Below, in pieces: positions 23,945 through 36,581 of a stretch of DNA of 64,000 bases. Each line of letters opens with the position of its first letter. Within the stretch, counting starts at the first letter, position 1. The position numbers were made by a program, and so were the translations under genes. Under the pieces are notes generated by a model that saw only the letters and a list, made by a program, of their open reading frames with translations, was not told where the DNA came from and did no database searches. This DNA comes from an uncultured Leifsonia sp. (GTDB lineage Bacteria; Actinomycetota; Actinomycetes; Actinomycetales; Microbacteriaceae): positions 2,400 through 66,399 of the forward strand of contig CAZZNX010000001.1 in the NCBI GenBank assembly GCA_964655795.1, read 5' to 3'.

Positions 23945-24223
23945 TCACTCCGCGAATCGATGCTCGCCCTCGAAATCATTCACGAGCGACCCCGTGATTC
24001 CCCGCCAATCCGAACCGAAGTGCGAGAACGTCTCGTGCCCGACGAGATACCCGTTGTAGACGGGGTCGTGGTCGGCACCGTGCCGCGTGATCACCTCGAT
24101 CCACCCGTAGTGGGTGCCAGCGGCATCCGTGATCTGCCAGTGCCCCGACTCATCCTTGTCCAGCGTGAACTCGCGACCTCTGTGCTCGAGCTTCTCGTGC
24201 TTGCCTGGCTTCGCGTACGGCAT
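23945..24223 (-). CDS. Hypothetical small protein (92 aa)
   Basis: The ORF has coding-like composition (His/Gly/Asp/Glu rich, not Arg/Pro shadow-like). I recognise no family. Confidence 0.45.
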   Translation of the reverse strand: MPYAKPGKHEKLEHRGREFTLDKDESGHWQITDAAGTHYGWIEVITRHGADHDPVYNGYLVGHETFSHFGSDWRGITGSLVNDFEGEHRFAE

Positions 24224-26783: not shown

Positions 26784-27680
26784 CTACGGGGTGGGGATTC
26801 CACCATTGGCGTTCAGCGTCTCGCCGAGCACGTAGCTCGACTCCGCCGACGCCAGGAAGACATATGCCGGCGCCATCTCCGCTGGCTGGGCGGCGCGGCC
26901 GAGCGGGGTGTTCTTCCCGAACTTCACGATCTTTTCCGGCGGCTGGCCATCGGTCACCTGCAGCACGGTCCACACCGGCCCCGGCGCCACGGCATTCACG
27001 CGGATTCCGCGTTCGGCCAACTGGCCGGCGAGCGCTTTGGTGAATGCGTTGATCGCGGCCTTGGTTGTCGCGTAGTCGATGAGGATCGGAGAGGGCTTGT
27101 ACGCCTGAACCGAGGTCGAGTTGATGATGGCCGCCCCGGCGGGCAGGTACTTCAGCGCCGCCTTGGATATCCAGAATGTCGCGTAGACGTTGGTGCGCAT
27201 GGTCTCGTCGAAGGCTTGATCCGAGAGTTGTTCCAGCTGCTCGCAGTAGACCTGTTTCCCGGCATTGTTCACCACGATGTCGAGCCCGCCGAGTCCGGCC
27301 GCGGCCGCATCGACGAGCCGCGTGCACTCCTCCGAGATCGAGACATCGACCGGGAGGAGCAGCGCGATTCGCCCGGCGAGCCGCACGAGCTCCGCGATGC
27401 GTTCGGCGTCGCTCTGCTCGCTCGGCAGGTACGCGAGGGCGACATCCGCACCCTCCCGGGCGAACGCAATGGCGACGGCGGCGCCGATGCCCGAGTCGGC
27501 CCCGGTGATGAGGGCGCGCCGGCCTGCAAGCCGTTCGGTGCCCCGATAGCTCGACTCCCCGAGATCCGGCGTCGGGACGAGTTCGCTGTCCAGCCCGGGC
27601 TCGTCCTGATGCTGAACGGGCGGCGAGATGCTCTCGTAGCGGGTTCTGGGATTGTCGAAGGTGTACTGGTCTCTGGGCAT
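26784..27680 (-). CDS. SDR oxidoreductase of the YdaD/YhxC 'general stress protein 39' type
   Basis: N-terminal PPVQHQDEPGLDSELVPTPD, then RALITGADSGIGAAVA, NNAG, DYATTKAAI and IRVNAVAPGPVWT. Confidence 0.88.
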   Translation of the reverse strand: MPRDQYTFDNPRTRYESISPPVQHQDEPGLDSELVPTPDLGESSYRGTERLAGRRALITGADSGIGAAVAIAFAREGADVALAYLPSEQSDAERIAELVRLAGRIALLLPVDVSISEECTRLVDAAAAGLGGLDIVVNNAGKQVYCEQLEQLSDQAFDETMRTNVYATFWISKAALKYLPAGAAIINSTSVQAYKPSPILIDYATTKAAINAFTKALAGQLAERGIRVNAVAPGPVWTVLQVTDGQPPEKIVKFGKNTPLGRAAQPAEMAPAYVFLASAESSYVLGETLNANGGIPTP

Positions 27681-27746: not shown

Positions 27747-28268
27747 TCACTCGCCGTCGGATTCCGCATGCTCGGCACGGTCGGCGGCACGCACACGCAC
27801 CGGTACGACCACCCAGACGGCGATGAGAACAATGGCGATCACCGCGGCGGCCGCGATGCCCCAGAAACGGCCGAGCACGAAGTCGAAGATGAGCATTCCG
27901 ATGCCGACGACGGTGATGGCAACGCCGATGAGCGTCAGCTGGGCGAAGCGGTCGGCCCGGGCGAGCACCTTGTCTTTCGCCCGCTTCCTGAAGAGGTAGC
28001 GGTGCAGGCTCACGGGCGCGAGACTGACAATCGTCGTCATGATCGATGTCACGACGAGCAGAAGGTAGGTGACGAGCTGGAACGTGTCCAGCTCCTCGAA
28101 CCGCGACTGGAACACGGCGGTCAGCAGGAAACCGGTGATGATCTGCGTTCCGGTCTGCACGACCCGGAGCTCCTGGAGCAGCTCGTTCCAGTTTCGGTCG
28201 AGCCGTTCCTTCTCGCTCTCCCCTGATCCGGCGGCATCCGCGGCCCTGGCCTCGGACGACTCGCTCAT
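27747..28268 (-). CDS. DUF6328-family membrane protein
   Basis: ERLDRNWNELLQELRVVQTGTQIITGFLLTAVFQSRF followed by 3-4 TM segments. Confidence 0.7.
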   Translation of the reverse strand: MSESSEARAADAAGSGESEKERLDRNWNELLQELRVVQTGTQIITGFLLTAVFQSRFEELDTFQLVTYLLLVVTSIMTTIVSLAPVSLHRYLFRKRAKDKVLARADRFAQLTLIGVAITVVGIGMLIFDFVLGRFWGIAAAAVIAIVLIAVWVVVPVRVRAADRAEHAESDGE

Positions 28269-28316: not shown

Positions 28317-28481
28317 CTATGCCGGCGGGTTGTCGGGGTCGACCGTCTCGATTGTGTCCTGCTCGACCTCGTTGTCGGCGTCGAGCTGATTGATCTCGGC
28401 ACCCTCACGTTCCTCCGTGTCACGTCTGCGTGACTCGGACTGCTCGGCCGCCTGCTGCGACCGGGCGCGCTCATCACTCAC
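28317..28481 (-). CDS. Candidate small acidic protein (54 aa, not in the ORF track)
   Basis: My own translation gives VSDERARSQQAAEQSESRRRDTEEREGAEINQLDADNEVEQDTIETVDPDNPPA. The GTG overlaps the upstream stop (GTGA). Codon usage (GAG/GAC/GCC) looks better than the Arg-rich track frame 28265-28477. Confidence 0.4.
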   Translation of the reverse strand: MSDERARSQQAAEQSESRRRDTEEREGAEINQLDADNEVEQDTIETVDPDNPPA

Positions 28482-29023
28482 GATGCTGCTCCCTCACTCG
28501 ATTCGCGGCCCGTTTCGCCCGGGGTACCCGGCACCGTTCCGCTACCCACTCTCTGCAGCAGCGTCTTGAGCTCGCCGTGGGCGCGCCGCGCATCCGCGAG
28601 CAGACCCTCCACCTTCACCCTGGCCATCGGGTGCACATCCCCGGGCAGGGCGTCGAAGAGGATGGTGTACGCCGCAAGCCTGACGCCGTCGAGCATCATC
28701 GCGGATGCCACGGCGGCGGCCTCGCGCAGTTCGGGTGCGCATTTGCCGAGGAACGCCGATTCCGACCGCACCAGCGCGCTCGATGCCGGTGACGGATACT
28801 GCGCCGGCGCAAGGTCCAGCATCTCGAACAAGCCGTTGAGTTCCGCAATCTGGTGGCGGGTTTGCGCCGTGCGGAACTCGAAGAAGTCCTCGACGTCATC
28901 GGAGCGGGCGGAGTCGATCAGCAGGGGCAGCATTCCAAGCCAGTCATGCTCCATCGTGAGTGTGGCGCCCAGCCGGTATCCGTACACGTCGCGCGGGCTC
29001 TCAAAACGCTCGAACATCATCAT
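28478..29023 (-). CDS. Ferritin-like DUF892 (YciE/YciF-type) stress protein
   Basis: 181 aa. FEFRTAQTRHQIAELNGLFEMLDLAP matches the H..eT..qi..L..vFe.lg pattern of DUF892. Confidence 0.7.
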   Translation of the reverse strand: MMMFERFESPRDVYGYRLGATLTMEHDWLGMLPLLIDSARSDDVEDFFEFRTAQTRHQIAELNGLFEMLDLAPAQYPSPASSALVRSESAFLGKCAPELREAAAVASAMMLDGVRLAAYTILFDALPGDVHPMARVKVEGLLADARRAHGELKTLLQRVGSGTVPGTPGETGRESSEGAAS

Positions 29024-29427
29024 CCACCCCGATTCTCTCGCTCATCGCCCGAGCCACGGCGGCTCGGCCATTGCCCTATCGCCGCGGAGTACGGGCGGCC
29101 CCTCCGATGGGACGCATGATTCGAGGGGGCCGCCGCACGGGAGCCGACACCGAAATGCCCACCGGAAACCCGGCCACGCTTCCTCGCCTCGGAAATGGCG
29201 GCACCGAGGCGTGACAGCACGCTACCGGGGGGCCCGGGCCGGAGCGAGGGGGTTGACAGCCGAAATTCTCCGTGTGCGCAACGCCGCCAGCGCGATCGAC
29301 GTGCCGGTGCCGCGCGCCGGTGCCGTGCGGCTACCACAAGCGCGCGCGGGGGTTCAAGCCCGTGCCGCTCCCGCCTCCTCAGAATTAGCGTGGAACTGTC
29401 TGGCCACGGGAGGGCAGTGTCTGGAGA

Positions 29428-29886
29428 ATGATGAAGAGCCGGGTGTCGACGACCATCGACGTGGATGCCAGCGTCGAGAACACCGTCGAGTTCTGGCGGC
29501 GTGCCGGCGCGGCCGATGGCGCGAGCCTTCCGCCCACCGTCGAGATGGTGTCGACTCAGTGGACCGTGTTGGTCAACGGCGTCCCGAGCACTCGCGAGGT
29601 TTCTGGCGCTGCCGCCGAGCTCTCCCGCGTGATCCCGCTCTCGAGTATGGATGGCGACGCAGCTCGAGGCGAGGTGACATTCGATGCGTTGGGAGAGCAG
29701 CGCACGAGAGTCGCGATCTCGGTGGAGTGGCAACGCGAAGACTCGGCCGAGAGCTACGTTCCGCTGGTTCTGCTCGACGGCATTCAGGTGAATTCCGACC
29801 TCAGGGACTTCAAACGCCAGGTGGAGCGGGGGGTGCGCAGTTCGCGAGAGTGGAAGGCGACCGTCGACAAGTTTGAGGCCTTCTAG
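29428..29886 (+). CDS. SRPBCC (cyclase/dehydrase-like) family protein
   Basis: 152 aa starting MMKSRVSTTIDVDASVENTVEFW. The assignment rests on pattern only and is moderate. Confidence 0.6.
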   Translation: MMKSRVSTTIDVDASVENTVEFWRRAGAADGASLPPTVEMVSTQWTVLVNGVPSTREVSGAAAELSRVIPLSSMDGDAARGEVTFDALGEQRTRVAISVEWQREDSAESYVPLVLLDGIQVNSDLRDFKRQVERGVRSSREWKATVDKFEAF

Positions 29887-30206
29887 GCGTGCTGTCGCAC
29901 GTAGTCCTCTGCGGCGTCCTCATCGATCACGAGCATGCCGCTTTCGCCCATCGCCGACAGTTCCATGGCATGAATCCACACCCGGTTGATGTCGCCTGGC
30001 GTGGTGCTCCGAAAGCGGAACTGCAGCGGAATTGACGGAGAGAGCCAGATCGCGATTCGCCCGGAGCCCTTCGCGCTCGGAACCGTCCAGCCGAGATAGA
30101 ACGACTCCTTGCGGCGCAGCTTGGCCCCGACCACGATCTTCACGTGGGAGAGCACCCGGTCGTCGAAGTCGAAAGGCGGCGAGACTGCGTAAACGAATTG
30201 CCCCAT
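29883..30206 (-). CDS. Uncharacterised small protein, paralogue 1 of 3 (107 aa)
   Basis: MGQFVYAVSPPFDFDDRVLSHVKIVVGAKLRRKESFYLGW...GRIAIWLSPSIPLQFRF... aligns without gaps to the two neighbouring ORFs. Confidence 0.75.
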   Translation of the reverse strand: MGQFVYAVSPPFDFDDRVLSHVKIVVGAKLRRKESFYLGWTVPSAKGSGRIAIWLSPSIPLQFRFRSTTPGDINRVWIHAMELSAMGESGMLVIDEDAAEDYVRQHA

Positions 30207-30272
30207 GATCCCAGCATGCGCCCGCGGTGTGCAGAACACCAGCGCCTGCGGAGATGTGAGGGGCCGCGCATC

Positions 30273-30307
30273 TTGCGAAGTCCATCCGGCTATCGCATGC
30301 TGTGTGC
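30273..30307 (+). promoter_or_regulatory. Predicted promoter of paralogue 2 giving a leaderless mRNA
   Basis: TTGCGA (30273-30278), 17 nt, CATGCT (30296-30301), 6 nt, ATG 30308. Confidence 0.45.
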
Positions 30308-30643
30308 ATGGGCGAACTGATCTATGGCGCAGAGACGTCATACCCGATGGAGGACCGCACGCTTTCCCATGTGAAGGCTGCGGTCGGCGGCAAGCTCAGG
30401 CGCCAGGAATCCTTCTACCTGAGCTGGATCGTGCCGGCCTCGAGCGGGTCAGGGCGGGTGAGCCTGTGGCTGTCTCCGGCGATTCCACTGCAGTTCCACT
30501 TCCTCGGCAACACCTCGCCGACGCTGAACCCCGTCTGGATTCGCGCGCTCGAGCTCACCTCGGTGAGCGACCGCGGCATGATCGTGCTGCCGGAGGCGGA
30601 GGCGGAGGCCTATGTGCGCGAGCACCCGAGCTCGCTCAGCTGA
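30308..30643 (+). CDS. Uncharacterised small protein, paralogue 2 of 3 (111 aa)
   Basis: MGELIYGAETSYPMEDRTLSHVKAAVGGKLRRQESFYLSW...GRVSLWLSPAIPLQFHF... I chose ATG 30308 to match the MG start of the paralogues. Confidence 0.75.
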   Translation: MGELIYGAETSYPMEDRTLSHVKAAVGGKLRRQESFYLSWIVPASSGSGRVSLWLSPAIPLQFHFLGNTSPTLNPVWIRALELTSVSDRGMIVLPEAEAEAYVREHPSSLS

Positions 30644-30681
30644 CTCCCGCAGCGCTCAGATGTCGCCCGCGCCGGAGCGGC

Positions 30682-30990
30682 TCAGGCGACCGCCACGACC
30701 GGCTCATCTTCGATGCGCAGGTCGCCGGAGGCATTCGCGCTCACCATCAGACTCGTCAGCCACTCGCGGTTGAGCTCATGGCGATCGGCGGTGTCGAACT
30801 CGAACTGGAGTGGAATCGAGGGATGAATCCAGAGCGAGATCCGGCTCGCTGGTTCGCCCGGCACCTGCAGGCACGACAGTGTGAAGGATTCCTGCCGTCG
30901 CAGCTTGGTCACGACCACCGATTTGACGTGGGCCAAGGTGCGATCGTCGACGGGGATCCGACGCTCTGCTCCGTAGACAATGGCTCCCAT
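30682..30990 (-). CDS. Uncharacterised small protein, paralogue 3 of 3 (102 aa)
   Basis: MGAIVYGAERRIPVDDRTLAHVKSVVVTKLRRQESFTLSC...SRISLWIHPSIPLQFEF... Confidence 0.75.
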   Translation of the reverse strand: MGAIVYGAERRIPVDDRTLAHVKSVVVTKLRRQESFTLSCLQVPGEPASRISLWIHPSIPLQFEFDTADRHELNREWLTSLMVSANASGDLRIEDEPVVAVA

Positions 30991-31128
30991 TGTGCACTTC
31001 CCATTCAGCTCAACACCATGCCGCCTGGCATTGGAGAAGTCGAACAGCGGCCTCGCTCATTAGCTGATTGTCCCGCGGGGTCTGGGCTGGTCAACCTGAG
31101 CCAAGTGTACGCTCGTTCAGTTCTCTGA

Positions 31129-31150
31129 GCACTGCTCATTTGAGCAGTGC
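31129..31150 (-). terminator. Short hairpin downstream of ku
   Basis: GCACTGCTCA-tt-TGAGCAGTGC lies about 30 nt after the ku stop and has no U-tract. Confidence 0.4.
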
Positions 31151-31180
31151 GGCGGCTCTCTCTCGGACGGAACGGCCTGA

Positions 31181-32038
31181 TCACGCGCCCTTCTGTGCCT
31201 TCTTGCGGCCGCTGCGTGCCGGCACCTTCGCTCCGGTTTCCTTGGCCCGCCCCGCGGCCGATTTGTTCTTCTCGATGCTGCGCCGCAGCGCGTCCATCAG
31301 GTCGATGACGTCGCCGCCCGATTCGGGCACTTCGCCGAAGGTGACGGCGGTGTTGACGACCTTGCCGGTCTTCAGTTTCTCGTCGATGAGTTTGCGCAGC
31401 TGCGCCTGGTACTCGTCGTGGTACTGCGACGGATCGAAGTCGGCGGCGAAGGAGCTGACGAGTGCTGAAGACATCTCGAGCTCCTTGCTCGCGATGTTCA
31501 CCCGTGTCTCGAGGGAGGCGAACTCCGGGGCGCGGATCTCGTCGTCCCACAGCAGAGACTGCAGCATGAGCGCCTTGCCGCGCACGCGCAGCGCGCCGAG
31601 ACGGGTCTTCTGGCGCAGCGCGAAGTGCACGATGGCCGTCAGATCCGTGGACTCCAGGGTGCGCCGCAGCAGCACATAGGCCTTGGGCGACGTGGAGTCC
31701 GGTTCCAGGTAGTAGCTGCGGTCGAGCATGATCGGGTCCAGCTGTGCGCTCGGCACGAACTCGACGATCTCGATCTCGCGGCTGCGCTCCTCCGGCAGCC
31801 CGCGCAGCTCCTTGTCGCTGAGCACCACGGTGTGCTCGTCATCCGCGTACGCCTTGTCGATGTGCTCGTACTCGACGATGCGCCCGCACACCTCGCACTT
31901 GCGTTGGTAGCGGATCCGGCCGCCGTCCTTGTCGTGCACCTGATGGAGTGGGATGTCGTGGTCTTCGGTCGCGCTGTACAGCTTGACCGGCACGTTCACC
32001 AATCCGAATGCAACAGAGCCTTTCCAGATCGCCCTCAT
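31181..32038 (-). CDS. ku: Ku protein (bacterial NHEJ DNA-end-binding protein)
   Basis: MRAIWKGSVAFGLVNVPVKLYSATEDHDIPLHQVH... with a Lys/Arg-rich C-terminal tail. It is divergent from ligD. Confidence 0.95.
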   Translation of the reverse strand: MRAIWKGSVAFGLVNVPVKLYSATEDHDIPLHQVHDKDGGRIRYQRKCEVCGRIVEYEHIDKAYADDEHTVVLSDKELRGLPEERSREIEIVEFVPSAQLDPIMLDRSYYLEPDSTSPKAYVLLRRTLESTDLTAIVHFALRQKTRLGALRVRGKALMLQSLLWDDEIRAPEFASLETRVNIASKELEMSSALVSSFAADFDPSQYHDEYQAQLRKLIDEKLKTGKVVNTAVTFGEVPESGGDVIDLMDALRRSIEKNKSAAGRAKETGAKVPARSGRKKAQKGA

Positions 32039-32056
32039 GGCTCCAGTACACACCCC

Positions 32057-32091
32057 TTGCGGGCGAGCGTCTAGAGACGCATGCTCGGGAC
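32057..32091 (+). promoter_or_regulatory. Predicted ligD promoter giving a leaderless mRNA
   Basis: TTGCGG (32057-32062), 17 nt, CATGCT (32080-32085), 6 nt, ATG 32092. No SD is present. The geometry and hexamers match those upstream of paralogue 2. Confidence 0.45.
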
Positions 32092-34521
32092 ATGGCATCG
32101 AAGCAGCAGCCCGTTGTCTCCGTCGGTGGGCGCACGATCAAGCTGACGAACCTCGACAAGGTTCTCTACCCGGAGACGGGGACGACCAAAGCGGACGTGA
32201 TCGACTACTACGTGACCGTGGCCGACGTCATGCTCCCCCACGTGAAGGATCGGCCGGCGACGCGCAAGCGCTGGGTGCACGGAGTGGGCACCGCAGAGGA
32301 GCCCGGCGCCGTGTTCTTCCAGAAGGACCTCGGCGATTCCGCACCGGAATGGGTCGCCCGCGGTGTCATCGAGCACTCCGACCACTCCAACACCTACCCG
32401 CTCGTGAACGACGTGGCCACCCTCACCTGGCTGGGGCAGATCGCCGCACTCGAGATCCACGTGCCGCAGTGGCGCTTCGACGCCCAGGGGCGCAAGCAGA
32501 ACCCCGACCGCTTCGTCCTGGACCTCGACCCCGGCGACGGTGTTCCACTCGCCGACTGCGCGGAGGTCGCCGTGTTGGCCCGCGGAATCCTCCGCGACAT
32601 GGGGCTCGACCCGATCCCGGTCACGAGCGGGAGCAAGGGAATCCACCTCTACGCGGCGCTCGACGGGAGCCAGTCCTCCGACGACGTCACCGAGGTGGCA
32701 CACGAGCTGGCCAGGGCGCTGGAGGCCGAGCACCCGGACGACATCGTGAGCTCGATGTCGCGTGCCCTCCGGCCGGGCAAGGTGTTCATCGACTGGAGCC
32801 AGAACCGCGCGGCCAAGACGACGGTCGCCCCCTACTCTCTGCGGGGCAAGCTGCGCCCGATGGTCGCCGCACCCCGCACCTGGCGCGAGTTGATGTCGAA
32901 AGACCTCCGCCAACTCGACTACCGGGAGACCATCCGGCGCGTCAAGGATCGGGGCGACCCGATGGCGGCGTTGGCCGGCGCTCCCGCCAGCGGCGATCGT
33001 CTTGCGCACTACCGCGAGCGCCGCGACGCCTCCAAGACCCCGGAACCGATGCCGGATTCGTACCGGGGCGGGCACGGTCGGCAATTCGTCATCCAGGAAC
33101 ACCGCGCGCGGGCCCACCACTTCGACTTCCGGCTCGAACACGACGGCGTGCTTGTCTCCTGGGCGCTGCCGAGGGGCATGCCCAGCGATGCGCAACACAA
33201 TCGGCTCGCGGTGCAGACCGAGGACCACCCGATCGAATACGCCGCATTCGAGGGGGTGATCCCCCGCGGGGAGTACGGCGCGGGAACGGTGGAGATCTGG
33301 GATGCCGGCGACTACGAGCTCGAGAAGTGGCGGGAAGACGAGGTGATCGTCTCCCTGCACGGACGAGCGGACGGCGGGCTGGGAACGCCAACCCGGGTGG
33401 CACTCATCCGCACCACCCCGGCCGTCGATGGCAAGGGAGCCTCCTGGCTCCTGCACCGCATGAAGGCACAGACGCCCGACCCCGAATGGAGCAGGCAGAG
33501 CGCCGAGGACTCCGGCGCGGTCGCGAACGAGATGAGGCAACGCGGCGAGCTGGCGCCGATGCTCGCGACGCTGGCGGAGCGCGAGGGACTCGACGACGAA
33601 GACGAGTGGGCCATCGAAATGAAGTGGGACGGCATCCGTGCCATCGCCGTCGTCGACGCCAATGCCGGCACCGCTGATCTGTCGAGTCGGAACGGACTCG
33701 ATCTCAGCCGAAGCTATCCCGAGCTGATCGCGGCGTTGCTGCGGGCCGCGGCACACACGGGGCACGCCGTTCTCGACGGTGAGATCGTCGCGCCCGACAG
33801 CGCGGGGCGTCCGGACTTCGGGCGGCTCCAGACCCGCATGGGGCTCACCGCGGAGCGCGAGGTCGAACGCGCCGCGCAGAGCGTGCCCGTGCAGTTCATC
33901 GTTTTCGACGTGCTCGAGCTCGACGGAGTCTCGCTCATCGACCGCAGCTACGACGAGCGCCGCCGCCGCCTCGAATACGCGCTCGCACCGACGCCGAAGG
34001 TTGTGCTGCCCGCCGCGATCACGGTGGGGCTGGATGCCGCACTGGACATCAGCGAGGATCTCGGCCTGGAGGGCGTCGTGGCGAAACGGCGCGATGGCAG
34101 CTACAAGTCGGGGCGGCGCTCAACCGACTGGCTCAAGTTCAAACACCTCCGCACGCAGGAGGTCGTCATCGGCGGCTGGCGGCCCGGCAACGGCGCCAGG
34201 CACGACAGCATCGGCTCCCTCCTGCTCGGAGTGCCGACGGATGACGGCCTCCGCTACGTCGGCCGCGTCGGCACCGGCTTCAGCGCGAAGGCACTGGACG
34301 CCGCCCGCGCGCGCATGGCCGGCCGCGCCAGCACGAGCAGCCCGTTCATCGACGTGCCCACGTCGGTCGCCAAGGACGCCCACTGGGTCAGCCCCGATCT
34401 GGTCGCGGAAGTCGAGTTCTTCGAATGGACCTCGACCGGTCAGCTGCGGCAGCCGTCCTGGCGCGGCTGGCGACCGGACAAGGCAGTGACCGACGTTGCG
34501 ATGGAGGAGGGGAAACGATGA
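32092..34521 (+). CDS. ligD: Multidomain ATP-dependent DNA ligase LigD (Pol/primase - phosphoesterase - ligase order)
   Basis: N-terminal Pol domain (IKLTNLDKVLYPETGTTKADVIDYY, RPATRKRW), PE domain (FVIQEHRARAHHFDFRLE...WALPRG) and ligase KxDG motif (EMKWDGIRA). ATG 32092. Confidence 0.95.
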   Translation: MASKQQPVVSVGGRTIKLTNLDKVLYPETGTTKADVIDYYVTVADVMLPHVKDRPATRKRWVHGVGTAEEPGAVFFQKDLGDSAPEWVARGVIEHSDHSNTYPLVNDVATLTWLGQIAALEIHVPQWRFDAQGRKQNPDRFVLDLDPGDGVPLADCAEVAVLARGILRDMGLDPIPVTSGSKGIHLYAALDGSQSSDDVTEVAHELARALEAEHPDDIVSSMSRALRPGKVFIDWSQNRAAKTTVAPYSLRGKLRPMVAAPRTWRELMSKDLRQLDYRETIRRVKDRGDPMAALAGAPASGDRLAHYRERRDASKTPEPMPDSYRGGHGRQFVIQEHRARAHHFDFRLEHDGVLVSWALPRGMPSDAQHNRLAVQTEDHPIEYAAFEGVIPRGEYGAGTVEIWDAGDYELEKWREDEVIVSLHGRADGGLGTPTRVALIRTTPAVDGKGASWLLHRMKAQTPDPEWSRQSAEDSGAVANEMRQRGELAPMLATLAEREGLDDEDEWAIEMKWDGIRAIAVVDANAGTADLSSRNGLDLSRSYPELIAALLRAAAHTGHAVLDGEIVAPDSAGRPDFGRLQTRMGLTAEREVERAAQSVPVQFIVFDVLELDGVSLIDRSYDERRRRLEYALAPTPKVVLPAAITVGLDAALDISEDLGLEGVVAKRRDGSYKSGRRSTDWLKFKHLRTQEVVIGGWRPGNGARHDSIGSLLLGVPTDDGLRYVGRVGTGFSAKALDAARARMAGRASTSSPFIDVPTSVAKDAHWVSPDLVAEVEFFEWTSTGQLRQPSWRGWRPDKAVTDVAMEEGKR

Positions 34522-35258
34522 CCGGAGCCGCGGACCGCGAGCCGACGGTCGACAAGAAGACCGACCTGAATATCGAGCGCGAGGCCCGCGCTGAGCCGCG
34601 CTGGCCTGCGGTGCTGGCGCTGCTCATCGCGCTCTCGCTGTACACCCTCCTGCCGACCGATGTCACGCCGACTCCCGTTCGGATCATCGTCGTCGTGGCC
34701 GGCATCGCCATGCTGATTCCGGTGCTCATCCTGAACCCCGTCCGCCTCAGCAAACAGAACTCATGGTCGCGGAGGCTCTCCGTCGGGCAGGCGCTCCTGC
34801 TCGTCGTTGCCAACTACGCCGCACTCATCCAGGTGATCTTTCTGCTCGTGACGACAACCGCGGAGGACGCGCCATCGATCTTGGTGACCGCGGCACAGGT
34901 CTGGATCACGAATGTGATCGCGTTCACGCTCGTGTACTGGGAGATGGACCGTGGCGGCCCCGTTGCCCGTCGCGTCGACCGACGCGACGAACTACCCATG
35001 GCCGACTACCGCTTCCCGCAGGACGAGGACCGGGACGCGGTCGCGGAGGTGGCGAAGCGGTCGTCGGAGGCGATCGACTGGACCCCATCGTTCATCGACT
35101 ACCTCTACGAGGCAGGGGTGAGCGCGATGGCCTTCAGCCCGGGTTCCGGAGTGCCCCTGTCGCCACGGATGAAGTTCTTGATGCTCGCACAATCGGCCGC
35201 ATCCTTCGTGATGCTCGCCCTCGTGATCGCGCACGCCGTCGGCCAGATCGGGGCCTGA
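34518..35258 (+). CDS. DUF1345-family membrane protein
   Basis: 246 aa with 4-5 TM segments and WITNVIAFTLVYWEMDRGGP. Its ATG overlaps the ligD stop (ATGA). Confidence 0.7.
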   Translation: MTGAADREPTVDKKTDLNIEREARAEPRWPAVLALLIALSLYTLLPTDVTPTPVRIIVVVAGIAMLIPVLILNPVRLSKQNSWSRRLSVGQALLLVVANYAALIQVIFLLVTTTAEDAPSILVTAAQVWITNVIAFTLVYWEMDRGGPVARRVDRRDELPMADYRFPQDEDRDAVAEVAKRSSEAIDWTPSFIDYLYEAGVSAMAFSPGSGVPLSPRMKFLMLAQSAASFVMLALVIAHAVGQIGA

Positions 35259-35345
35259 CTTTCATCCGGACGCTCCGAAGTCAAGCCATTTCATCGCGCG
35301 GGGCGTCGACCTAGCGTTGGATACCGAGCGGAAGGAGCACTGCCG

Positions 35346-35600
35346 ATGGACCAATCAAGCGAGATGCCCGACGACGACTCCGTCGGAACGCAGGACGAAC
35401 CGATCATGGATGTCGACGAGGTCTCTGACCGGGACAAGCTCGATGGCATCATCGCCCAGACGGTCTCCGATCTCGGAGCCCAGCATCCGCGCACCGACAT
35501 CGAGGCCGTGGTGGTCGAACGCAGCAGAGAATCGGGGCTGCACATCTCACGCACCGACATCTCCACAGCGGTCGGATCCGCCATCGAGGGCGGGCGCTGA
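35346..35600 (+). CDS. Small acidic hypothetical protein (84 aa)
   Basis: GGAAGGAG SD and coding-like codon usage. It ends 6 nt before the topoisomerase IB start. Confidence 0.55.
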   Translation: MDQSSEMPDDDSVGTQDEPIMDVDEVSDRDKLDGIIAQTVSDLGAQHPRTDIEAVVVERSRESGLHISRTDISTAVGSAIEGGR

Positions 35601-35606
35601 CACCCG

Positions 35607-36581
35607 ATGGTGCGGCTGCGAACGGCCGACCCGTCGGCGCCCGGTTGGACCCTGCGCCGAAACGGCACCGGCATCAGGGTGCTCGACGAACGTGGCCGCG
35701 TGATCACCGACGAGGAGCGACGTGAGCGGGTGACCGCGCTGAGCATCCCACCGGCGTGGAGCATGGTCTGGATCGCGCCGCAGCCGAACGCTCACATCCA
35801 GGCGGTCGGAACCGATTCACAGGGCCGCAGGCAGTACATCTACCACGAGCAGTGGAGCCGGGCCCGCGCGCGTCAGAAGTACGACAGGGCACTGGAGCTG
35901 GCGGTGAGCCTGCCGAGCGCCAGAGCGGTGGTCACCCGCGACCTCCGCGGGGCGGCCGGCACCCGTGAGCGCGCGCTGGCCGTGGCGTTCCGGCTCCTGG
36001 ACAGCGCGCTGCTCCGCGTCGGGAGTGAGCGTTACGAACGCGCGCACGGCAGCAGGGGTCTCACGACGCTGCTCGGCTCCGATGCCCACGTGCATGGCGA
36101 CACCGTGCTGCTGGAGTTCGTCGGCAAGGGCGCCGTCGACTGGTCGTCGGAGACGAGCGACCCCGACCTCGCCGCGGCCGTGCGCTCGCTGAAGCGCCGC
36201 GGCCCAGACGCCCGCCTTCTCGCGTGGAAGGACGACGCGGAGTGGCGGCCGCTTCACGCCACCGAGGTGAACGAGTACGTGCGTGCCCGCACCCACGGCG
36301 ACTTCACCGCCAAGGACTTCCGCACCCTGCACGGCACCGTCCTCGCGGCTCAGGCACTCGCGGCTGAGGGGCCACAGGACGACGCCCGTGCCAGAAAGCA
36401 GGCGATCGTCCGCGCAACGGCGGTCACGGCACTCGCCCTCGGCAACACCCCGGCGATCGCACGCGCGAACTACATCGACCCCCGCGTGTTCGATCGATAC
36501 CGGGACGGGCGCGTTCTCGCGACCGGGTCGATCGCGGCGGAGCGGGCCGTCCGCGCGCTCATCCTCGGCGACCCGGGCTGA
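35607..36581 (+). CDS. Type IB DNA topoisomerase (poxvirus-like bacterial TopIB)
   Basis: 324 aa with IPPAWSMVWIAPQPNAHIQAVGTDSQGRRQYIYH, FVGKG, FTAKDFRTLHGT and a catalytic-Tyr context ARANYIDPRV. Confidence 0.85.
   Translation: MVRLRTADPSAPGWTLRRNGTGIRVLDERGRVITDEERRERVTALSIPPAWSMVWIAPQPNAHIQAVGTDSQGRRQYIYHEQWSRARARQKYDRALELAVSLPSARAVVTRDLRGAAGTRERALAVAFRLLDSALLRVGSERYERAHGSRGLTTLLGSDAHVHGDTVLLEFVGKGAVDWSSETSDPDLAAAVRSLKRRGPDARLLAWKDDAEWRPLHATEVNEYVRARTHGDFTAKDFRTLHGTVLAAQALAAEGPQDDARARKQAIVRATAVTALALGNTPAIARANYIDPRVFDRYRDGRVLATGSIAAERAVRALILGDPG

Follow-up and report, generated by a model that had tools for sequence, protein, structure and literature searches.

Nonhomologous end joining (NHEJ) in bacteria is usually described as a two-protein system, composed of Ku and LigD, for which we know of almost no accessory factors. 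Bacterial factors that interact with Ku or LigD include mycobacterial Sir2 and UvrD1, and the C-terminal arm of Ku recruits LigD. Analysed here are three small paralogous genes, designated P1, P2 and P3, that lie beside ku and ligD in an uncultured Leifsonia sp. of the family Microbacteriaceae (assembly GCA_964655795.1). The window, that is the whole stretch of DNA analysed, comprises 64,000 nucleotides of contig CAZZNX010000001.1 (positions 2,400 to 66,399 of the forward strand). An original prediction made from this stretch had regarded the three genes as a local triplication of an undescribed family and as a possible NHEJ accessory, end-binding or regulatory factor. The family turns out to be a catalogued one: by profile search (106-112 bits), P1, P2 and P3 are members of Pfam family PF25355 (DUF7882). 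The link of this family to ku and ligD is real and above chance but partial, being found in a minority of loci and shared with other stress-type genes. New here are the quantified, reciprocal association of DUF7882 with ku/ligD and DUF7218, which takes multiple architectures, and the observation that DUF7882 extends far beyond the rhodopsin setting in which it was published.

PF25355 was deposited in 2025 by the authors of a CryoRhodopsin (CryoR) study, in which every CryoR genome carries a gene for a small soluble protein adjacent to or overlapping the rhodopsin gene (PMC12227055). AlphaFold 3 (AF3) predicted DUF7882 to be a pentameric ring (interface predicted template-modelling score, ipTM, 0.9) in which the beta-blades formed between subunits are extended by a short beta-strand of the rhodopsin C-terminus, and a role as "transducer" was proposed (PMC12227055). 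The authors compare this ring to bacterial PH-domain (bPH) rings (PDB 3DCX) and report a C-terminal tail predicted to be disordered; the transducer role is a hypothesis drawn from AF3 and gene context (PMC12227055). This 2025 study is the only one found in a literature search on DUF7882, and no experimental follow-up was found. P1, P2 and P3 resemble the putative transducers of Cryobacterium, Subtercola and Glaciihabitans (PMC12227055) in their full-length match to the hidden Markov model (HMM), size, MG start and core, as well as in their variable, probably disordered C-terminal tail and bacterial family. They differ in gene context: a rhodopsin gene is adjacent or overlapping there, whereas the neighbours here are a gene for a 152-amino-acid soluble protein, the paralogues themselves and ku.

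The three paralogues and their family

The three open reading frames (ORFs) are present where they had been predicted, and Pfam domains confirm that the neighbouring genes are ku and ligD. Leifsonia sp. Root4 (locus L001), whose genome is the closest one found, serves as reference; other loci are likewise cited by L number. The genes at the centre of the locus are:

29883-30206, minus strand: P1, DUF7882 paralogue of 107 amino acids (PF25355, 106.6 bits, residues 1-96)
30308-30643, plus strand: P2, DUF7882 paralogue of 111 amino acids (PF25355, 106.3 bits)
30682-30990, minus strand: P3, DUF7882 paralogue of 102 amino acids, adjoining ku (PF25355, 111.8 bits)
31181-32038, minus strand: ku (PF02735, 160 bits; 86% identity to Root4 Ku)
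32092-34521, plus strand: ligD, with PrimPol, phosphoesterase and ligase domains (PF21686, PF13298, PF01068 and PF04679)

The 97 positions of the PF25355 model are covered from 1 to 97 by P1 and by P2 and from 1 to 96 by P3. With E about 1e-31 for each protein in the Pfam scan, where the gathering cut-off is 27 bits, the similarity is far above chance. A MAFFT alignment is free of gaps to column 100, P2 being 52% and P3 40% identical to P1. Ungapped counts give 56/107 identical positions for P1/P2, 41/96 for P2/P3 and 39/96 for P1/P3, the first two agreeing exactly with counts made earlier by hand. The motif blocks listed at that time likewise match the invariant columns of the 3-way alignment and of a 40-way alignment of homologues, which are M1, G2, Y6, D16, R17, H21, K/R-L-R-R, E34, S35 and F36 in the first part and R50, W54, P57, I59, P60, F63, F65, N74, W77 and E96 in the second. 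Because all homologues in the 40-sequence alignment have MG at residue 1, the short MG starts of P1, P2 and P3 are taken as correct; an alternative 152-amino-acid form of P1 would overlap the start of P2.

P1 shares 74% amino acid identity with its Root4 orthologue (L001 10001-10324), with a ratio of nonsynonymous to synonymous substitution rates (dN/dS) of 0.21, and is the fastest-evolving of the three. The corresponding values are 93% and 0.10 for P2 and 92% and 0.05 for P3. Since dN/dS lies between 0.05 and 0.21, P1, P2 and P3 are real coding genes under purifying selection. Isoelectric points (pI) are 6.8 for P1, 5.9 for P2 and 5.5 for P3, and P3 is of a short divergent type with C40 in place of W40. 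A crude hydropathy scan finds no transmembrane (TM) segment in any of them, as the original prediction had said. Lookup of the exact P3 sequence in public assemblies gave no match on record, and an NCBIfam scan of P1, P2 and P3 gave nothing. PADLOC gave no match and PHROGs only one at E 0.32, so that no anti-phage defence or phage family is indicated.

The DUF7882 family comprises 1063 representatives at 50% identity in the profile search, 757 of them at E<=1e-10, and nearly all are 100-160 amino acids long. Named relatives all belong to Microbacteriaceae, with the sole exception of one Rarobacter locus. DUF7882 proteins are single-domain, with the domain starting at residue 1 (MG...) and followed by a short variable tail; the ten longest members consist of DUF7882 with low-complexity tails or mis-called starts and contain no fused domain. 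Family medians are pI 6.0 and net charge -2, that is, mildly acidic. All names among the 120 matches listed, and among those members of 10 clusters that were listed, are 'hypothetical protein' or 'DUF7882', and the 'ATP-dependent DNA ligase' label mentioned earlier for similar proteins is absent from this set. Because the family counts about 1000 clusters at 50% identity, is multi-copy within genomes and is mostly unrelated to rhodopsins, whatever function is assigned to DUF7882 must be more general, for example that of a modular adaptor.

An AlphaFold 2 (AF2) model of P1, built with 40 homologues, is confident for the monomer (pLDDT 94.4, by the predicted local distance difference test; predicted template-modelling score, pTM, 0.85) and shows the order beta-beta-alpha-beta-beta-beta-alpha-alpha. 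The structure prediction suggested earlier as a check thus gave a clear model, but the accompanying Foldseek comparison gave no PDB analogue. A sequence-profile search of PDB gave nothing at E<=1, and 3DCX is absent among the 50 Foldseek PDB matches listed. The predicted DUF7882 pentamer and the bPH rings (PDB 3DCX) are alike in forming inter-subunit beta-blades by beta-augmentation (PMC12227055). P1, P2 and P3, however, have no bPH family match in the Pfam scan, and no PDB chain reaches E<0.6 or a template-modelling score (TM-score) >0.35 with the monomer model; the likeness is therefore at most one of assembly mode, not of homology. Against BFVD, Foldseek gave a single marginal match, A0A345KS05, which is an unnamed viral protein (E 0.063, probability 0.99; TM-score 0.47 over 69 columns), which is uninformative.

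Linkage of DUF7882 to ku and ligD

The linkage was counted from both sides, in 79 DUF7882-anchored genome loci and in 80 Ku-anchored loci obtained by a metagenome scan with the Ku of the window. From the DUF7882 side, ku and ligD lie within 10 kb in 10/79 loci, and the remaining 69 (about 87%) have no ku/ligD inside that distance. The ten positive loci collapse to about three lineages. One is formed by Root4 together with the window. Another comprises eight Humibacter-type loci, a monophyletic group with the same-strand order ku > (DUF7218) > DUF7882 and gaps of 27-700 bp, ku being followed by DUF7882 after 27-99 bp. The last is a single metagenome-assembled genome (MAG; L042) with five DUF7882 copies around ku. 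From the Ku side, DUF7882 occurs in 10/80 loci, in 7/29 of those of at least 10 kb and in 7/23 with adequate flanks, so that 22/29 long Ku loci are without it. When Ku lineages are collapsed at >=90-95% Ku identity, 4 of the 17-19 informative lineages carry DUF7882, and the enrichment thus persists. The chance expectation is about 3%, a rough estimate that assumes about five copies per genome of 3.5-4 Mb and a 20-kb span; against it the link is enriched roughly ten-fold. The recurrent ku/ligD synteny of the original prediction therefore stands as an association above chance (10/79, 7/29 and 4/17-19 lineages), and falls short in being found at a minority of loci.

At least five different gene orders are encountered, involving different DUF7882 subfamilies. 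Besides those described above, they include the following, in which arrowheads mark gene direction:

L107: ligD< ku> DUF7882> DUF7882>
L121, L134, L143, L151 and L153: sigma> DUF7882< ligD< ku> DUF7218>, with DUF7882 51 bp after ligD
L125: DUF6328> ku> SDR> DUF7218> x> DUF7882> DUF7882<, with no ligD
L129 and L161: three to five scattered DUF7882 copies around ku-ligD

Lasting proximity combined with changing order is a classical sign of functional or regulatory coupling, and the very short same-strand gaps to ku/ligD (27-99 bp) suggest co-transcription in some lineages. In L107 (7585-10025), LigD is encountered as two ORFs of 318 and 495 amino acids with a 4-bp overlap, which a frameshift, an assembly error or a genuine split may explain.

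In the window, L001 and L083, ku is followed 165-194 bp downstream by a P3-type copy. P2 orthologues are found in Microterricola, Agromyces and Rhodoglobus without ku nearby. Beyond the Root4 lineage, the nearest locus that is orthologous belongs to Microterricola pindariensis (L019). It retains the P2/P3 pair, an orthologue of the gene at 29428-29886 and, from the right flank, the DUF1345-like gene, with only about 460 bp at the position of ku-ligD. As this leaves no room for ku-ligD, the two genes behave as an insertion or deletion in an otherwise conserved DUF7882 locus.

Copy sets and old clades

An HMM search of the 79 DUF7882-anchored loci and the window (80 loci in total) gave 119 DUF7882 copies, with at least two copies in 32/80 loci. 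Adjacent pairs comprise 16 real tandem pairs (gaps 2-53 bp), 4 convergent and 4 divergent ones. The second gene of many tandem pairs belongs to its own deep clade of shorter proteins, and there may be an ancient A/B pair of DUF7882 proteins that co-assemble. P1, P2 and P3 fall into three separate old subclades, so that the local triplication proposed earlier is not a recent one. Their arrangement recurs in part elsewhere: convergent P2/P3-type pairing is also found in L003, L019 and L042 (gaps 13-38 bp) and in the metagenomic contigs L080-L082 (33-bp gap), and a divergent pair with P1/P2-like spacing recurs in Rhodoglobus. In Root4 (L001 7376-8905), about 1.5 kb with GAF-ANTAR-type gene(s) separates the P3 and P2 orthologues, which in the window are 38 bp apart.

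Local transcription signals

The noncoding features around the three genes are:

30207-30307, no strand: P1/P2 divergent intergenic region of 101 bp, with CATGCT 6 nt upstream of each ATG
30644-30681, no strand: P2/P3 convergent gap of 38 bp, without a folding advantage over shuffled sequence (z about 0)
31067-31094, minus strand: sigma-70-like match TTGACC-16-GACAAT upstream of P3 (a consensus match only)
31129-31150, minus strand: perfect 9-bp hairpin directly after the ku stop, a candidate ku terminator without U-tract

CATGCT (or CATTCT) is located 6 nt before the start of P1- and P2-type genes in the window, L001, L003 and L019, without a Shine-Dalgarno site, which suggests leaderless P1 and P2 mRNAs. 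TTGCGA lies 17 nt upstream of the P2 CATGCT, a layout kept in the Root4 and Microterricola orthologues, and these elements are regarded as putative promoters. P3 is preceded by a Shine-Dalgarno-like GGGAAG 6 nt before its ATG and follows ku, on the same strand, at a distance of 190 bp. TTGACC-16-GACAAT is the sole promoter-like site in 29300-32300. The hairpin stretch (76 nt) has a folding energy of -29.6 kcal/mol (z = -3.7; 0/200 shuffles as stable), and the left arm of the hairpin is not kept in Root4. The spacer between the divergent start codons of ku and ligD (32039-32091) is only 53 bp long, so that the promoters of these two genes overlap or lie inside coding regions; it is used by none of P1, P2 and P3. 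Promoter sharing with ligD, as proposed earlier, does not fit this layout, in which P3 lies downstream of ku, behind the hairpin and with a sigma-70-like site of its own.

A search for gapped dyads enriched upstream of the 119 DUF7882 copies gave nothing. K-mer enrichment gave GTGTCAATCCCCC and CACTATG, a signal that is probably phylogenetic because it is confined to closely related Leifsonia orthologues. The canonical SigF/SigB motif GTTT-N13-18-GGGTA has 0 matches in the window, and looser versions have none in 25-37.5 kb. No promoter motif common to DUF7882 and the other neighbourhood genes was found, and an Rfam scan of 29300-32300 gave no RNA family.

The wider stress-type neighbourhood

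The genes flanking the DUF7882-ku-ligD cluster, as identified by Pfam, are:

26784-27680, minus strand: SDR
27747-28268, minus strand: DUF6328
28478-29023, minus strand: DUF892
29428-29886, plus strand: protein of 152 amino acids, no significant match in the Pfam scan
34425-36581, plus strand: right flank, with a weak DUF1345-like membrane protein, an ORF of 84 amino acids and TopIB
35607-36581, plus strand: bacterial topoisomerase IB (TopIB), 1 kb from ligD

The gene at 29428-29886 converges on P1, their stop codons overlapping in the palindrome CTAG. It accompanies DUF7882 in Root4, Microterricola and two Leucobacter loci, and its Microterricola orthologue shows only a weak SRPBCC/Polyketide_cyc2 match (E 0.0035). 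In other genomes, too, the SDR, DUF6328 and 152-amino-acid proteins are encoded in the vicinity of DUF7882 or ku. The neighbours counted across the 79 DUF7882 loci are DUF7218 (25), an SDR like that at 26784-27680 (22), 'c4' (18) and TopIB (10), followed by GAF-ANTAR (9), DUF1345-like (9), Dps (7) and a SigB/F-type sigma factor (6); at least one marker of this neighbourhood is present in 54/79. DUF7218 and SDR are thus commoner neighbours of DUF7882 than ku is. Of the 29 long Ku loci, 14 carry DUF7218, 10 carry DUF6328, 5 the sigma factor and 1 TopIB.

DUF7218 (PF23855) is a basic protein of about 90 amino acids with a Rho_N/SAP motif. It is the commonest neighbour common to ku and DUF7882, often located between them (for example L125 11888-12154, L121 7802-8071, L028 9636-9908 and L163 4870-5130), and its linkage to ku may be closer than that of DUF7882. 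Like DUF7882 it is small, uncharacterised and actinobacterial, and the two follow ku in the order ku>DUF7218>DUF7882 in Humibacter. It differs in being unrelated to DUF7882 in sequence, in its basic character with a SAP/Rho_N-type motif and in its absence from the window. The literature search found no paper mentioning DUF7218. In several lineages a group-3 (SigB/F/G-type) sigma factor gene lies a few kb from ku-ligD or DUF7882 (L121 2843-3799, L143 5823-6779, L161 4918-5865 and L033 10728-11573), with no matching promoter motif definable. The protein 'c4', of about 100 amino acids and without Pfam match, adjoins ligD in Humibacter-type loci; in the window, a short region at 23975-24184 (minus strand) is 30% identical to it (E 4e-11).

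Proposed role and alternative explanations

A shifting stress or dormancy gene neighbourhood, with NHEJ as one of its tenants, is the most economical reading of these data. Within it we tentatively propose that P1, P2 and P3 are oligomeric tail-binding adaptors whose partner is set by the paralogue, the P3 type being a candidate modulator of Ku/LigD; this we consider possible, though a little short of probable. Three old DUF7882 paralogues, soluble alpha/beta proteins of about 100 amino acids with variable, often acidic C-terminal tails, would form ring-shaped oligomers that act as protein-protein adaptors, each capturing an exposed tail or beta-strand of its partner by beta-sheet augmentation. 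Different paralogues would take different partners, and adjacent ones would probably co-assemble into hetero-rings. They would be part of a shifting stationary-phase or stress-survival neighbourhood, made up here of ku-ligD, SDR, DUF6328, DUF892 and TopIB and elsewhere also of DUF7218, Dps and the SigB/F-type sigma factor. If any copy modulates Ku or LigD on a facultative basis, the ku-adjacent one (P3 type) would be the likeliest to do so, though neither as part of the NHEJ core nor by binding DNA ends. The parts of this scheme that we infer are the assembly of hetero-oligomers, the co-regulation under stress and the choice of Ku or LigD as partner. The absence of fused domains, the low-complexity tails and the mild acidity are adaptor-like features. 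Such a protein would share with Sir2 and UvrD1 a non-core position, acting on Ku-LigD, and a gene near ku/ligD, but it has no sequence or fold relation to those factors and its linkage to ku is partial.

Several points weigh against the adaptor scheme and the stress neighbourhood behind it. The pentamer and the beta-augmentation mode come from unvalidated AF3 predictions for other DUF7882 members. At the level of the monomer the bPH resemblance is not reproduced, because Foldseek finds no significant PDB analogue of the P1 model (best E 0.63, TM-score <=0.34). DUF7218, Dps and the sigma factor are absent from the window. A 'stress regulon' is read from gene content only, since no common promoter motif was found, and the null expectation used for the ku link is a coarse one.

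The same linkage could have a more direct meaning, namely that DUF7882 is a dedicated NHEJ accessory that binds DNA ends or Ku/LigD and is needed for efficient joining, the three copies being a specialised expansion. Enrichment from both the DUF7882 and the Ku side, short-gap same-strand placement after ku or ligD in several lineages and with different subfamilies, and a proximity that lasts while gene order varies all speak for this idea, and to this extent the proposal of an NHEJ accessory keeps its footing. It is nevertheless unlikely. About 87% of DUF7882 copies lie elsewhere (69/79 loci without ku/ligD), 22/29 long Ku loci lack the family, and in Microterricola both flanks and the P2/P3 pair are present while ku-ligD is missing. 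The one partner proposed in print is a rhodopsin, and other neighbours are as frequent as ku or more so, DUF7218 and SDR adjoining DUF7882 more often. The proteins are also mildly acidic, which is a weak argument, and carry no DNA-binding motif or other nucleic-acid-binding signature, so that the end-binding role suggested earlier is improbable in itself. An extended form, which we regard as still more doubtful, makes the ku-linked subtypes (P3, Humibacter, L107 and L121 types) a true third NHEJ component that would bind the C-terminal arm of Ku (or else LigD or DUF7218) and control end joining while cells are not growing; DUF7882 proteins would then be general tail-capturing ring adaptors, forming hetero-rings, with a sister paralogue acting on the CryoRhodopsin C-terminus.

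At the other extreme, DUF7882 genes may be fast-duplicating small genes, unrelated to NHEJ, that gather with other accessory stress genes in variable island-like regions, in which case they lie close to ku through common descent and because both occupy the same regions. The location of most copies elsewhere, the heterogeneous neighbours with no dominant partner, the reduction of ten positive genome loci to about three lineages, the insertion- or deletion-like state of ku-ligD when the Microterricola locus is compared and the lack of a common promoter motif among the genes searched are all as expected from such a process. Less easily accommodated are an enrichment that survives lineage collapsing, at least five architectures with different subfamilies, and same-strand gaps of 27-99 bp to ku/ligD that suggest co-transcription in some lineages; on balance we judge a purely incidental link rather unlikely, while taking it seriously. 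That the three proteins are cytoplasmic transducers of CryoR rhodopsins is suggested by the same Pfam family and the same bacterial family, Microbacteriaceae, but is very improbable: by a crude TM count no membrane-protein gene adjoins P1, P2 or P3, DUF7882 has a much wider distribution and many more copies than CryoR, and tblastn with bacteriorhodopsin, a weak test, gave no rhodopsin-like match in the window or the 79 loci.

Conclusions

The DUF7882 trio is a lead rather than a proven repair factor, and a dedicated role in NHEJ is unproven. If ku and DUF7882 do no more than share a stress island, the result amounts to an ordinary DUF annotation. As it stands, a family enriched about ten-fold beside ku/ligD, in several independent gene orders and within one actinobacterial family, provides a concrete candidate regulator.

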